Source of the DNA: an uncultured Clostridia bacterium
Lineage (GTDB): Bacteria > Bacillota > Clostridia > Christensenellales > UBA1242
Assembly: GCA_944350265.1 (NCBI GenBank)
Contig: CALVOG010000005.1
Coordinates: 2,891 to 66,890, forward strand
DNA length: 64,000 nt
Direction of reading: 5' to 3'
Below the pieces are notes generated by a model. The model ran no database searches and was not told the origin of the DNA. It worked only from the letters and a program-made list of their open reading frames with translations. Below are positions 43,099-45,975 of this stretch, piece after piece; the first letter of the stretch is position 1, and each line of letters begins with the position of its first letter. A program made the position numbers and the translations under genes.

Positions 43099-44385
43099 TT
43101 AGTTAATAGGCGTTATTACTTTTTTTCCGCCCATATACTTCTGAAGAACTTCCGGCACCAACACACTGCCGTCCTCTTGCAAGTTGTTTTCTAAGAGCGC
43201 AATGAGTGCGCGGGTGGAGGCAAGCACGGTGTTGTTGAGGGTGTGAAGATAATAGTTGCCCTTTTCACCTTTTGCGCGGATGCCAAGCCTGCGCGCCTGC
43301 GCGTCGCCAAGTGTGGAGCAAGAGCCGACTTCAAAATATTTCTTTTGGCGCGGACTCCAAGCCTCAACATCACAACTTTTCACTTTAAGGTCGGCAAGGT
43401 CACCACTGCAACATTCAAGCGTGCGCACAGGTATGTTCATATTGCGGAAAATCTCCACAGTGTAATTCCACATTTTGTTATACCAGTCCATACTTTCCTC
43501 TGGGCGACACAAAACAATCATCTCTTGCTTTTCGAATTGATGGACGCGATAAATTCCGCGCTCCTCAATGCCGTGCGCGCCAACTTCTTTGCGAAAGCAA
43601 GGACTATACGAGGTCATTGTGATTGGAAGTTCTTTCTCGTTTATGATTTGACCTTTGAATCTGCCTATCATACTATGCTCGCTTGTGCCGATAAGGTAGA
43701 GGTCCTCTCCTTCAATTTTATACATCATTGCGTCCATTTCGGCAAAACTCATAACACCGTTCACAACGTCGCTTCTTATCATAAATGGAGGTATGCAGTA
43801 GATAAAACCTTTTTCAATCATATAGTCGCGGGCGTAGTTTATCATTGCGCTGACAAGCCTTGCTGGGTCGCCGATAAGATAATAAAAACCATTTCCGCTC
43901 GTTCTGCCTGCGCTTTCTTTGTCTAAGCCGTTAAATCTCTTTAAAATGTCGGCGTGATATGGCACTTCAAACGCTGGCACCTTAGGTTCGCCAAAACGCT
44001 CGATTTCCACATTTTCGCTGTCGTCCTTGCCGAGTGGGACGCTGGCGTCGATTATGTTTGGAATTGTCATCATATTTTTTTTGATTTGCTCATTGAGCGC
44101 ATCTTCTTCCTTTTCAATCTCGGCAATTCGTTCGTTATTCTTTTTGACGGTTTCCTTAATTTTGTTTGCCTCGTCCACATTTTTCTCGCGCATAAGTTTG
44201 CCAATTTGCTCGCTTAAACTGTTGCGGGAGGCGCGGAGTGCATCTGCCTCTTGTTTAAGGGCACGGTTTTTCTTATCTAATTCAAAAACCTCGTCAACAA
44301 GAGGGAGTTTTTCGTCCTGGAATTTCTTTTTGATATTTTCCTTCACAAGTTCTCTATTTGTTCTAATTAAATTGATGTCAATCAT
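43099..44385 (-). CDS. serS: seryl-tRNA synthetase
   Basis: It has an N-terminal coiled-coil arm and class II motifs (FRKEVGAHG..RGIYRVHQFEK, GSCSTLGDAQARR). AAGGAG lies upstream of the ATG. Confidence 0.95.
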   Translation of the reverse strand: MIDINLIRTNRELVKENIKKKFQDEKLPLVDEVFELDKKNRALKQEADALRASRNSLSEQIGKLMREKNVDEANKIKETVKKNNERIAEIEKEEDALNEQIKKNMMTIPNIIDASVPLGKDDSENVEIERFGEPKVPAFEVPYHADILKRFNGLDKESAGRTSGNGFYYLIGDPARLVSAMINYARDYMIEKGFIYCIPPFMIRSDVVNGVMSFAEMDAMMYKIEGEDLYLIGTSEHSMIGRFKGQIINEKELPITMTSYSPCFRKEVGAHGIEERGIYRVHQFEKQEMIVLCRPEESMDWYNKMWNYTVEIFRNMNIPVRTLECCSGDLADLKVKSCDVEAWSPRQKKYFEVGSCSTLGDAQARRLGIRAKGEKGNYYLHTLNNTVLASTRALIALLENNLQEDGSVLVPEVLQKYMGGKKVITPIN

Positions 44386-44463
44386 TTTTATCTCCTTACT
44401 CTATTATTTTAGTTCAATTTGGCGTAAAAAGCAAGTTATTTCGGTGAAAAAATTTGTTTTGAT

Positions 44464-44587
44464 GGGGCGCTGGGAGCGCGCGAAACGCGCGCTCGGCGAG
44501 AGGCGCAAAAGGTTTAAAAAAAATGCGTAAGGGCTAGGCGCGCCTCTCGCCACCGATTTTTCGCCGAAAAATCGGTTCCAGCGCCCG
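44464..44587. other. GC-rich nested-palindrome element folding into a four-helix junction
   Basis: GGGCGCTGG (44465-73) pairs with CCAGCGCCC (44578-86). A hairpin GAGCGCGCG-AAA-CGCGCGCTC spans 44474-94. GGCGAGAGGCGC (44495-506) pairs with GCGCCTCTCGCC (44540-51). A hairpin ACCGATTTTTC-GCC-GAAAAATCGGT spans 44552-76. All four stems are perfect. Confidence 0.8.
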
Positions 44588-44811
44588 CCTTGTGACTATC
44601 TTGCCCACCAAAATTCAAAGCAAAATAAGCATTATTTTAAGAACCTATCAACTGCAAAACTTAAACCTAGTCTTGTCAACGCTTTTTTAATTTCTTTTAA
44701 AGTGATATAAGTTTAGCGCAATCAAAAAAAGCGCGTGCAAAGAGAAAACAACAAGAAAATTGCATAAATATTAAAAAAAATTAATTTTTATAAATAATTT
44801 GAGTATTTTGT

Positions 44812-44840
44812 TTGACAATTTTTTCATAAATAGATAAAAT
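44812..44840 (+). promoter_or_regulatory. sigma-A promoter for ftsA-ftsZ
   Basis: TTGACA, a 17-nt spacer and TAAAAT lie 20 nt upstream of the ftsA ATG. Confidence 0.55.
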
Positions 44841-44859
44841 ATAGTTATAAAGAGGGGTT

Positions 44860-45975
44860 ATGGCGGAAAATTGCGTAACGGTTATTGAAATCGGTTCGTC
44901 CAAACTTTCGTGTATGATTGCCGAGAGGGGGCTTAACAACACTTTCTGCATCAAAGCGAAGGCGTCGGTTGATTACGCTGGCTTTTTGGAGGGCGATTTT
45001 GTGGAAAAGGCGTATTTAGACGACGCTGTGATGACTCTTTTTTCGCAAATCACGTCGGTATACAAAAAGAAAATCAAAAAAGTTTTTGTAGGTGTGCCTG
45101 CCGAATTTTCGAAGGTTATCACCGAAAACTGTCAACTGAACTTCAAAAATCGTCACGCGATAAGCGAGAAGGACATTGATAACATCATTGCCAGCGCATC
45201 CAGCGCGAACTATGCTGATGATATGGACATAATTTCGGTCAACCCAATTTCCTACACGCTCGACGAGGCGAAGAACATACAAAATCCGTTAAAACAAAAG
45301 TGCTATTTCATCTCAGCCGACCTATCGGTGGTGCTATGCAAGGCGGATTTCATTAAACAATTCAACAAAATTTTCTCAAAGATGAACATCGAACAGGTGG
45401 AATACATAAGCGAACCGCTTGCCGAAGGGCTGTTTATTTTGGCAGAGGAGGAACGCGAGCGCACTTGCATTGTGATTGATGTTGGCGCGCGCTCCACAAG
45501 TGTGGCGTTCATTAAAAACAATGCGATGACAAACCTCACCTCTTTCTCAATGGGAGGGTCCTACATAACAAGCGACCTCGCCGAGGCCTGCGGAATTGAT
45601 TACCAAGAAGCGCGTCGGCTGAAAAAGCAAATTGTGCTTTCTCTTAAGGGCGCGGATGACACCTACGAACTCTCCACACTTGGCGGAAAAATTTTGAAGT
45701 TGCCGTTGAATTTTGTCAATGAGGCTGTGTGCTATCGAATAGGGCTGATTGCCTCCACGGTCAACGAGTGCATCCGTGTTTTCGCCAAGGAGTATGTGCC
45801 GTTCTATCCAATCTATCTTTGCGGGGCGGGCATAAGCAAGTTGCGAGGCGGAAAGGACTATCTTGCAAAGTGCCTTAATCGAAACGTTAGTTATGGCACA
45901 CCTCCAATTCCGGGGATGGACAAGCCGGAACTTGCCTCAATCTTGGGGCTTGTGTCGACCGCGCTGAATAGTTAA
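44860..45975 (+). CDS. ftsA: cell division protein FtsA (short form, no obvious C-terminal membrane-targeting helix)
   Basis: It has an actin-fold ATPase pattern (VIEIGSSKL, IVIDVGARSTSVA, MGGSYITSDLA, LCGAGISKLRG). It lies immediately upstream of ftsZ. The product is 371 aa. Confidence 0.85.
   Translation: MAENCVTVIEIGSSKLSCMIAERGLNNTFCIKAKASVDYAGFLEGDFVEKAYLDDAVMTLFSQITSVYKKKIKKVFVGVPAEFSKVITENCQLNFKNRHAISEKDIDNIIASASSANYADDMDIISVNPISYTLDEAKNIQNPLKQKCYFISADLSVVLCKADFIKQFNKIFSKMNIEQVEYISEPLAEGLFILAEEERERTCIVIDVGARSTSVAFIKNNAMTNLTSFSMGGSYITSDLAEACGIDYQEARRLKKQIVLSLKGADDTYELSTLGGKILKLPLNFVNEAVCYRIGLIASTVNECIRVFAKEYVPFYPIYLCGAGISKLRGGKDYLAKCLNRNVSYGTPPIPGMDKPELASILGLVSTALNS

Follow-up and report, generated by a model that had tools for sequence, protein, structure and literature searches.

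The closest known kind of element to the one described here is the REP/BIME class of intergenic repeats. REP, BIME and REPIN sequences occur with RAYT (TnpA-REP) transposases in Enterobacteria and Pseudomonas (Di Nocera et al. 2013, PMC3733652). An individual REP is a single imperfect hairpin of 20 to 40 nt that bears a GTAG or CGTC tag and is present in tens to hundreds of copies alongside a RAYT gene (PMC3733652). Islets behind tRNA and tmRNA genes, and tandem islands at tRNA genes, are a further described arrangement, exemplified by the ssrA islands of Dehalococcoides (McMurdie et al. 2011, PMC3146451). Two other kinds of element also invite comparison. These are the attC sites of integrons and the short, non-coding, dispersed insertions known as MITE, Correia/NEMIS, RUP and ERIC.

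The element analyzed here lies between the divergent genes serS and ftsA, within the window (the whole 64,000-nt stretch of DNA that was analyzed). Its paired part is 122 nt long and consists of four helices that together hold 41 Watson-Crick pairs, with no G-U pairs and no mismatches. The preliminary description had proposed four perfect helices that could form on either strand, and sequence and folding bear this out (41 pairs, z about -7). Its limits, 44464-44587, were one base too wide at either end, as G44464 and G44587 are unpaired. The minimum free energy is -79.2 kcal/mol for the + strand (z -6.7) and -76.4 kcal/mol for the - strand (z -7.6), and none of 200 shuffles folded equally well. 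The element is a genuine structure, clearly beyond chance.

It had also been noted that the region carries no T-box, and a search of the window element against Rfam (15) at E<=10 agreed, returning no T-box and nothing meaningful. ARAGORN found no tRNA at this position, and a scan of 44300-44900 gave 0 terminator-like sites.

BLAST of the whole element against its own genome (G000; 1.116 Mb in 18 contigs, 40.6% GC, 95% complete) returned only the self match. We then scanned the same genome for perfect hairpins and subsequently with a descriptor comprising a closing stem around a hairpin, a long-loop stem and a second hairpin. This search identified the same architecture at four further places, one each on contigs C7 and C18 and two on C1. 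BLAST, which had been put forward as the way to look for further copies, misses these paralogues because their central third is too diverged, and only a structure-aware search recovers them. The preliminary description was thus correct that the window holds a single copy, as the paralogues all lie outside it, but the element is not solitary. In addition to the four paralogues, the genome contains three related junctions: a scan that admitted only Watson-Crick pairs found eight compact GC-rich four-way junctions in the real sequence, as against none after Markov shuffling. When all copies were searched against Rfam, as had been suggested for this region, no known RNA family and no tRNA was reported, although true tRNAs in the neighborhood were detected. 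No copy is followed by a T-run.

A MAFFT alignment of the paralogues was unfit for modeling, and the alignment was therefore bootstrapped from a single-sequence covariance model. Model R1, built from the window copy alone, was used to align the other four copies, and model R2 was rebuilt from those four only. R2 recovered the unseen window copy as the top match in the genome (97.4 bits, E 4e-15). Across the five paralogues, standard pairs make up 97.4% of pair cells and 27 of the 40 pairs have changed on both sides, and the long-loop stem co-varies at all 11 of its modeled pairs, so that the covariation analysis recommended earlier supports the fold. This level of covariation was reached by 0 of 500 shuffles and was not approached in any slid register, with the caveat that the alignment is itself fitted to the model. 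The non-Watson-Crick cells on the + strand comprise five G-T and one C-A, and all five G-T cells sit at helix ends.

The five copies are 115 to 124 bp long and combine a shared scaffold with a private module. The scaffold consists of the closing stem (GGGGCGCTGG/CCAGCGCCC), a GCGCGC hairpin and a CGATTTTC/GAAAATCG hairpin and, judging by its sequence, is recognizably homologous across copies; in hairpin 3 the shared core shows compensatory changes. The private module is a stem of 10 to 12 bp with a sequence unique to each copy, around a loop of 29 to 37 nt, and neither stem nor loop has anything in common between copies. The long-loop stem of the window copy, for instance, occurs in no other paralogue. 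The flanks and "tails" of the different copies have no sequence in common that could point to a larger mobile unit. A TTGTGA-like motif near several element ends is too inconsistent to be a target site or duplication. A guide-RNA role for the private stem and loop was rejected, since their candidate targets elsewhere in the genome are chance matches of only 12 to 16 nt. The positions of these features are collected in Table 1.

Table 1. Positions of the window element, its parts, its neighbors and its paralogues. Positions without a contig name refer to the window.
Feature	Position	Strand	Remarks
serS (seryl-tRNA synthetase)	43099-44385	-	Pfam Seryl_tRNA_N, tRNA-synt_2b; lagging strand
Probable serS promoter	44434-44406	-	-35 TTGCTT, 17-nt spacer, -10 TAAAAT
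Complete four-way junction, type I copy "C5"	44465-44586	+	Folding; R2 97.4 bits, E 4e-15
Closing stem, 5' arm GGGCGCTGG	44465-44473	+	Pairs with 44578-44586, 9 bp; kept in 4/5 paralogues
Hairpin 1, GAGCGCGCG-AAA-CGCGCGCTC	44474-44494	+	9 bp; GCGCGC core common to paralogues
Long-loop stem, 5' arm GGCGAGAGGCGC	44495-44506	+	Pairs with 44540-44551, 12 bp
A/T-rich loop of long-loop stem, 33 nt	44507-44539	+	Unconstrained
Long-loop stem, 3' arm GCGCCTCTCGCC	44540-44551	+	
Hairpin 3, ACCGATTTTTC-GCC-GAAAAATCGGT	44552-44576	+	11 bp
Sole linker, T	44577	+	
Closing stem, 3' arm CCAGCGCCC	44578-44586	+	
Lineage-specific spacer DNA 3' of element	44587-44735	.	Outer end approximate; absent from L003, polymorphic among strains
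ftsA promoter, TTGACA-17-TAAAAT	44812-44840	+	11/12; 226 nt downstream of element; block kept with L003
ftsA	44860-45975	+	Flanking gene, then ftsZ
Paralogue (C7)	C7:54519-54635		Descriptor scan; between two TauE half-genes, 4 nt after stop codon
Paralogue (C1)	C1:31199-31322		Descriptor scan
Paralogue (C1)	C1:106797-106915		Descriptor scan
Paralogue (C18)	C18:1438-1552		Descriptor scan; between Ig-like membrane protein gene and radC, 3 nt after stop, 30 nt before next ATG
Setting of one of the two C1 paralogues: between era and a DUF378 gene			
Setting of the other C1 paralogue: between queA and tgt			

REP/BIME sequences resemble this family in being GC-rich palindromes between housekeeping genes, often just past stop codons, in being lineage-specific and present or absent between relatives, and in having had both DNA and RNA roles proposed for REPs (PMC3733652). 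The element analyzed here differs from them in several respects. It is a perfect four-way junction of 115 to 124 nt with no tag and only five copies, it includes an arm private to each copy, and its stems are under roughly 11-fold purifying constraint. Neither GTAG nor CGTC occurs within the element, which starts with GGGGCGCTGG. A search for PF01797 (Y1/RAYT) gave no match in the 95%-complete own genome, while matches were present in four congeners and six control genomes. The preliminary description held that it would be refuted by many dispersed copies if these had the termini of a known REP/MITE family, or by a match to a known RNA family. This applies only by half: we found dispersed copies, and no GTAG/CGTC tag, RAYT gene or Rfam match.

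The family shares with MITE, Correia/NEMIS, RUP and ERIC elements the character of short, non-coding, dispersed intergenic insertions with terminal inverted repeats, a part that the closing arms could play. It departs from them in that the central third is unrelated between copies and in that each of the four helices is under selection to stay paired. Only the era copy has a flanking direct repeat (TTTGTG), with no consistent target-site duplication elsewhere, and searches for Y1 and tyrosine recombinases revealed no autonomous transposon relative. The family is not previously described: a full-text literature search returned no account of four-way-junction intergenic repeats.

We next consider how the family is distributed. 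Its host is a species complex of a gut lineage with a genome of roughly 1 Mb, whose records are labeled uncultured Clostridia or Bacilli, and the relatives identified through serS are likewise metagenome-assembled genomes of uncultured gut Bacilli/Clostridia with small genomes. When R2 was run against 36 congeners and against 24 genomes from the same order, no copy was found. A signature consisting of hairpin 3 and the closing arm was run against 185,579 species representatives, IMG/VR and JGI metagenomes and yielded no true member; the 73 genome, 7 viral and 81 metagenome stretches that matched are all chance occurrences, none of which fits the model or has the 5' arm. Searches of phage and plasmid collections did not find the family either. 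It thus appears to be confined to the host species complex.

Comparison of orthologous loci indicates that the element was inserted. Divergence within the genus defeats a search at the DNA level, and we located the congener loci by protein anchors. In the closest relative, L003 (92% SerS identity), the ftsA-serS spacer is 223 nt long and lacks the element, with the ftsA and serS promoter blocks kept on either side of the gap. Here the spacer is 474 nt, a length made up by the element together with spacer DNA that is absent from L003. The queA-tgt spacer, also 474 nt here, measures 0 to 110 nt in seven of the eight congeners in which both genes were located and contains an inserted gene in the eighth. 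At the TauE locus, one strain has an empty site. The earlier proposal of a solitary nested-palindrome mobile element therefore holds as far as an intergenic nested-palindrome insertion is concerned, with empty sites in relatives and in one strain, but not as to its being solitary. In 492 kb of the closest congener, G030 (32% GC), there are two compact four-way junctions whose sequence is quite different, and these separate gene pairs that are directly adjacent in G000. So the architecture recurs in the genus, with sequences and sites particular to each lineage.

Strain variation offers a direct view of the constraint on these structures. Haplotypes were collected from contigs encoding identical flanking proteins, which gave 6 to 12 distinct haplotypes at each of five loci: the window, TauE, radC and era loci of the family, and the rny locus, which has a variant junction. 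The queA-tgt locus yielded identical sequence only and hence no variant haplotypes. Stem positions are variable at 6 of 372 sites (1.6%), as compared with 11 of 59 for small loops and linkers (18.6%), 34 of 165 for long loops (20.6%), 116 of 1053 for flanking spacers (11.0%) and 82 of 469 for four-fold codon sites in adjacent genes (17.5%). Stems thus have about 11-fold fewer variable sites than four-fold positions (odds ratio 0.08, p 5e-16), while the loops in total (45 of 224, 20%) are indistinguishable from them. Hypermutation of the loops was rejected for this reason, even though their variation is twice that of the flanking spacers, which are themselves partly constrained. Each of the six stem variants is a single change without compensation.

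The window copy has stems as conserved as those of the other copies. Across its 12 haplotypes the long-loop stem has no variants and hairpin 1 has two rare ones, both uncompensated, while 5 of 32 positions of the 33-nt loop vary, as does a homopolymer length. The haplotypes of the radC locus fall into two main groups, between which 17.5% of four-fold sites and 40% of long-loop positions have diverged, as against only 1 of 68 stem positions. This indicates that the elements predate the divergence of these groups and that purifying constraint on the helices is strong. The constancy of the private long-loop stems cannot be put down to gene conversion from a master copy. Given how constant the stems are among strains, the dissimilarity of the long-loop stems between paralogues does not reflect slow compensatory drift within the lineage. 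It seems instead that every copy was born with its own long-loop module.

We also asked how G-U pairs fare. Each stem pair offers one transition site that leaves a G-U pair on the + strand and one that does so on the - strand, and the expected number of such variants was derived from four-fold sites, 11.1% of which show transitions. Against an expectation of 20.6 per strand, we observed one on the + strand (P 8e-9) and two on the - strand (P 9e-8). Wobble pairs are therefore selected against as strongly as true mismatches, on both strands.

All five copies are intergenic, and their setting relative to genes and replication bears on what they might do. The window copy lies 30 nt upstream of the serS -35 box and 79 nt upstream of the serS start codon. 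The serS promoter is called probable on the basis of conservation, as it is kept in L003, a relative without the element; its -35 box matches at only 3 of 6 positions and the consensus scanner does not list it. It would leave serS a leader of roughly 15 to 20 nt. As this promoter stands between element and gene, the element would lie outside the serS transcript, and it is upstream of both divergent promoters, that of serS and that of ftsA. The only promoter-like sites able to read through it are weak, at a chance-level 9/12 and in strain-variable sequence, and the promoter scan gave no convincing + strand promoter of its own. The genome shows very strong GC skew and gene-strand bias, and the modeled + orientation, which is common to all five paralogues, corresponds to the leading-strand sequence (the lagging-strand template) in 5/5 copies. 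This uniformity is only suggestive, with a two-sided p of about 0.06 at n=5 and confounding with transcription direction.

Taken together, these results are best read as a REP-like nested palindrome, maintained by the host and acting in the form of folded DNA, a reading to which we assign a probability of roughly 0.5. Once the duplex is opened, either strand would fold into a fully stacked four-way junction. Opening would take place chiefly on the lagging-strand template at the replication fork and, at the window, possibly also under negative supercoiling in the stretch that separates the two divergent promoters, those of serS and ftsA. Selection that keeps four perfect helices and no loop sequence would suggest that the shape is read by a structure-specific DNA-binding or DNA-processing protein, to the benefit of the host, and the element would have a REP/BIME-like lifestyle in that it is intergenic, lineage-specific and inserted between housekeeping genes.

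We rank this folded-DNA reading first because of the rejection of wobble pairs on both strands and the position of the window copy. Intolerance of wobble pairs is what would be expected of a DNA structure or of folding on both strands, unlike ordinary structured RNAs, although it is not decisive, as G-U pairs would also be disfavored if maximal RNA stability were selected. The cruciform or DNA-level candidate of the preliminary description is thus favored by two-strand pairing, by wobble selection on both strands and by replication orientation, with the qualification that a stem whose arms are 33 nt apart is kinetically difficult to extrude from a duplex. Other points weigh against the folded-DNA reading as well. 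At least two copies must be transcribed and an RNA role suits most copies equally, the 5/5 orientation has the limited weight given above, and candidate partners are wanting, with no Y1/RAYT gene and no tyrosine recombinase gene adjacent. Purifying selection at the host level is unusual for REP-like "junk," and some strains carry fold-breaking deletions at the TauE locus.

One alternative, possible but in our estimate unlikely, is that the element is an RNA module, co-transcribed with the upstream gene as an extremely stable four-helix RNA that punctuates operons. It might block 3' exonucleases or act as a signal for processing or insulation, by analogy with REP stabilizers or tRNA-like "punctuation." The C7 and C18 copies start only 3 to 4 nt past a stop codon, and the C18 copy ends 30 nt before the radC start, so that at least these two must be transcribed and lie on mRNA. 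Element orientation matches gene orientation in 4/4 co-directional contexts. The cloverleaf topology, and the combination of constrained stems with neutral loops that is typical of a purely structural RNA, would likewise suit an RNA. The excess of G-T over C-A cells on the + strand (5 versus 1) points the same way, but all five are at helix ends, and among strains wobble-creating transitions are rejected like other changes on both strands. The window copy, upstream of both flanking promoters and with no convincing one of its own, has stems that are equally conserved. Moreover, there is no Rfam match, there are no conserved loop or junction nucleotides for tertiary contacts or protein binding, and a single hairpin would suffice as an exonuclease barrier. 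The earlier candidate of a novel structured leader or ncRNA is accordingly weakened as regards an RNA role in general and fails as a serS leader, given the conserved promoter in between.

A second alternative is a folded single-strand site of recombination or insertion, comparable to integron attC or CTX-phage attP, in which the junction would offer a recombinase a pseudo-duplex and strain-variable DNA would be gained or lost at its edge. Several differences among strains do fall at the edges of the junctions. At the era locus, about 920 nt with a 164-amino-acid (aa) open reading frame (ORF) replace 34 nt of G000 in 5 of the 10 strain contigs listed, and the difference begins exactly past the last base of the closing stem, CCAGCGCCC. 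At the rny locus, a 485-nt indel, which has no match in Rfam, ends about 6 nt from the closing stem of the variant junction. The TauE locus has a 39-nt spacer in one strain and a filled form that is 266 nt longer, the addition consisting of the junction directly after the stop codon and an unrelated 146-nt tail, present or absent as a whole unit. Other strains have lost either 23 nt between GGCGCGC repeats or 7 nt at this locus, and both deletions break the fold. At the window locus, strain L366 has a 10-nt deletion that starts from the last closing-stem base. Both a recombination site and simple palindrome fragility fit these edge breakpoints, as fork stalling and hairpin cleavage would also be expected to place breaks at palindromes.

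The likeness to attC extends to a conserved outer pairing around a central part that varies in sequence and length yet remains palindromic, to variable DNA that starts at the site edge and to orientation relative to replication, as in other single-stranded-DNA elements. On the folded-DNA reading, the element would also share with attC an active form that is a folded single strand. It lacks, however, the RYYYAAC/GTTRRRY cores and the extrahelical bases of attC, and it is a four-way junction, not a bulged hairpin. Its copies are dispersed over four contigs without arrays, an adjacent IntI gene or mobile cassettes. The 164-aa ORF, which matches no Pfam family, was rejected as a mobile cassette because it is always found at the era locus. 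The genome has four tyrosine recombinase genes, none of them adjacent to any copy, the inserted segments carry no junction of their own and the tails of the copies are unrelated.

This same alternative would make the dispersed copies kin to the four-way-junction modules behind tRNA genes of the same genome. The remaining three of the eight junctions differ in the order of their arms and share an 11- to 12-bp stem with a 33- to 34-nt loop. One is located on C1, 5 kb away from the GC-skew switch, and the other two follow the tRNA-Gln(ttg) and tRNA-Gln(ctg) genes. The tRNA-Gln junctions take two of their four arms from the tRNA itself, whose T-arm and acceptor 3' strand pair with an inverted copy located in the trailer, and a direct repeat of the tRNA 3' end marks the limits of the islets; such T-arm arms and repeats are typical of integrase sites. 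The same tRNA-Gln module is present in 2 of 40 congeners, where the trailer arm co-varies with the tRNA T-stem, while the remaining matching congeners have the two tRNA genes close together without the module. Like tRNA-tail islets, the tRNA-Gln junctions bring to the comparison a closing stem, two hairpins, an 11-bp stem and a 33-nt loop, whereas the window element and its four paralogues lie away from tRNA genes and are without tRNA-derived sequence. The matching design makes the two groups candidates for kinship only. On balance, we regard a recombination site as improbable.

A bolder proposal, to which we give equally little credence, would make the junctions a new class of DNA site that is selected in the host and specific in its shape. 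They would be Holliday-junction mimics that form on the lagging-strand template and are read by a structure-specific enzyme, with DNA insertion, deletion or exchange precisely at the base of the closing stem, the private stem serving as a locus address and the tRNA-Gln-tail junctions being the ancestral or "docked" form. If true, this would amount to an attC-like recombination platform in folded DNA without an integron.

T-box leaders are common on aminoacyl-tRNA synthetase genes of Firmicutes, and the element lies close upstream of serS, but a cis-regulatory leader that replaces a T-box, or an intrinsic terminator or attenuator, is very improbable, because the conserved serS promoter separates the element from the gene and is kept in a relative without the element, the region has no T-box at E<=10, no U-tract and no terminator, and the same element stands beside the unrelated genes era, queA/tgt, TauE and radC; the earlier placement of the element in the serS 5' region as a leader is therefore not upheld.

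Palindromic repeats between genes are commonly regarded as selfish or neutral DNA, and the structures they form as incidental. Here, a genome of 1.1 Mb holds a handful of junctions with constrained helices, a uniform facing relative to replication and positions at the edges of indels. This combination suggests a structure that is read as folded DNA and is important to the cell. If so, the family would provide a handle on proteins that recognize branched DNA outside recombination, and it would bear on how small pieces of DNA are gained and lost in reduced genomes.

Compact four-way junctions also occur in the closest congener genome, G030, which carries two with perfect pairing. Each is inserted into a gene pair whose members lie side by side in the genome to which the window belongs (G000). 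These two junctions have three short hairpins apiece and are unrelated in sequence.

Within G000, a variant junction lies near rny and was present in all six of the strain haplotypes compared at this locus, with no variation in its stems. Its arms comprise, in order, a closing stem of 12 to 13 bp, a 12-bp stem capped by a loop of 34 nt, and two 6-bp hairpins. The element is about 5 kb from a switch in GC skew at approximately 135 kb on contig C1, which is probably the replication terminus. The noncoding segment that abuts it is found in G000 and one other strain and is missing from four others, and an Rfam search of this segment returned no matches.

A different arrangement was observed behind tRNA genes. 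In the two tRNA-Gln junctions, the tRNA itself supplies two of the four arms, namely its T-arm and acceptor 3' strand, and their pairing partner is an inverted copy located in the trailer. A direct repeat of the final 20 nt of that tRNA delimits the junction islet. Congeners G026 and G061 have the same module, with arms that covary, and it is absent from the remaining congeners with a match. The modules behind tRNA-Leu(aag) and tRNA-Leu(taa) each terminate in a copy of the last ~18 nt of the tRNA that they follow.

Features in and around the junction loci. C1, C3, C7 and C16 are contigs of G000; L-numbers are individual sequence records.
Feature	Size	Coordinates	Location
Compact perfect four-way junction, G030	82 nt	L293:2055-2136	
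Compact perfect four-way junction, G030	77 nt	L321:1649-1725	
Variant four-way junction		L087:3034-3156 (C1:140233-140355)	98 nt upstream of rny
Noncoding segment	~485 nt	L087:3157-3888 (C1:140356-141087)	Between yebC and rny; one end abuts the rny junction
Four-way junction		L370:104-211 (C16, outside window)	Directly behind tRNA-Gln(ttg)
Four-way junction		L370:339-446 (C16, outside window)	Directly behind tRNA-Gln(ctg)
tRNA-tail module	~150-220 nt	C1:162850-163026 (outside window)	Behind tRNA-Leu(aag)
tRNA-tail module	~150-220 nt	C3:7560-7998 (outside window)	Behind tRNA-Leu(taa)
Strain-variable AT-rich segment	~920 nt	L350:537-1456 (strain contig)	era-DUF378 locus
Probable serS promoter and short leader		Window 44386-44434	TTGCTT-17-TAAAAT, conserved
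Partial second copy		L085:2905-2936 (C1:106704-106735)	75 nt upstream of queA-tgt element
TauE/TSUP permease encoded by a pair of half-size genes	138 and 129 aa	L086:2600-3711 (C7:54099-55210)	Junction between the halves

The strain-variable segment at era encodes, on the opposite strand, a 164-amino-acid open reading frame with no Pfam family, and every occurrence of the segment is at this locus. Its insertion point is the exact 3' edge of the four-way junction. At the TauE locus, one strain (contig L336) has only 39 nt between the two half-genes. Next to the window element, the serS leader behind the conserved promoter is short, at an estimated 15 to 20 nt or so, and has no T-box either in the window or in the relative L003. 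The partial copy near the queA-tgt element, which may be the leftover of a tandem neighbor, reads GGCGATTTT..TTGTGA-GGGGCGCTGAG; it combines a hairpin-3 arm with the closing 5' arm, and a TTGTGA motif stands between them.

Finally, strain contigs L340, L344 and L345 cover the region downstream of radC. In some strains radC is followed by a large serine recombinase gene, positioned close to the tRNA-Ser site of the G000 contig. These contigs revealed no link between the radC-locus junction and the variable region downstream. The genes downstream of radC differ in other strains, and because of these differences we conclude that this region is a variable integration hotspot.
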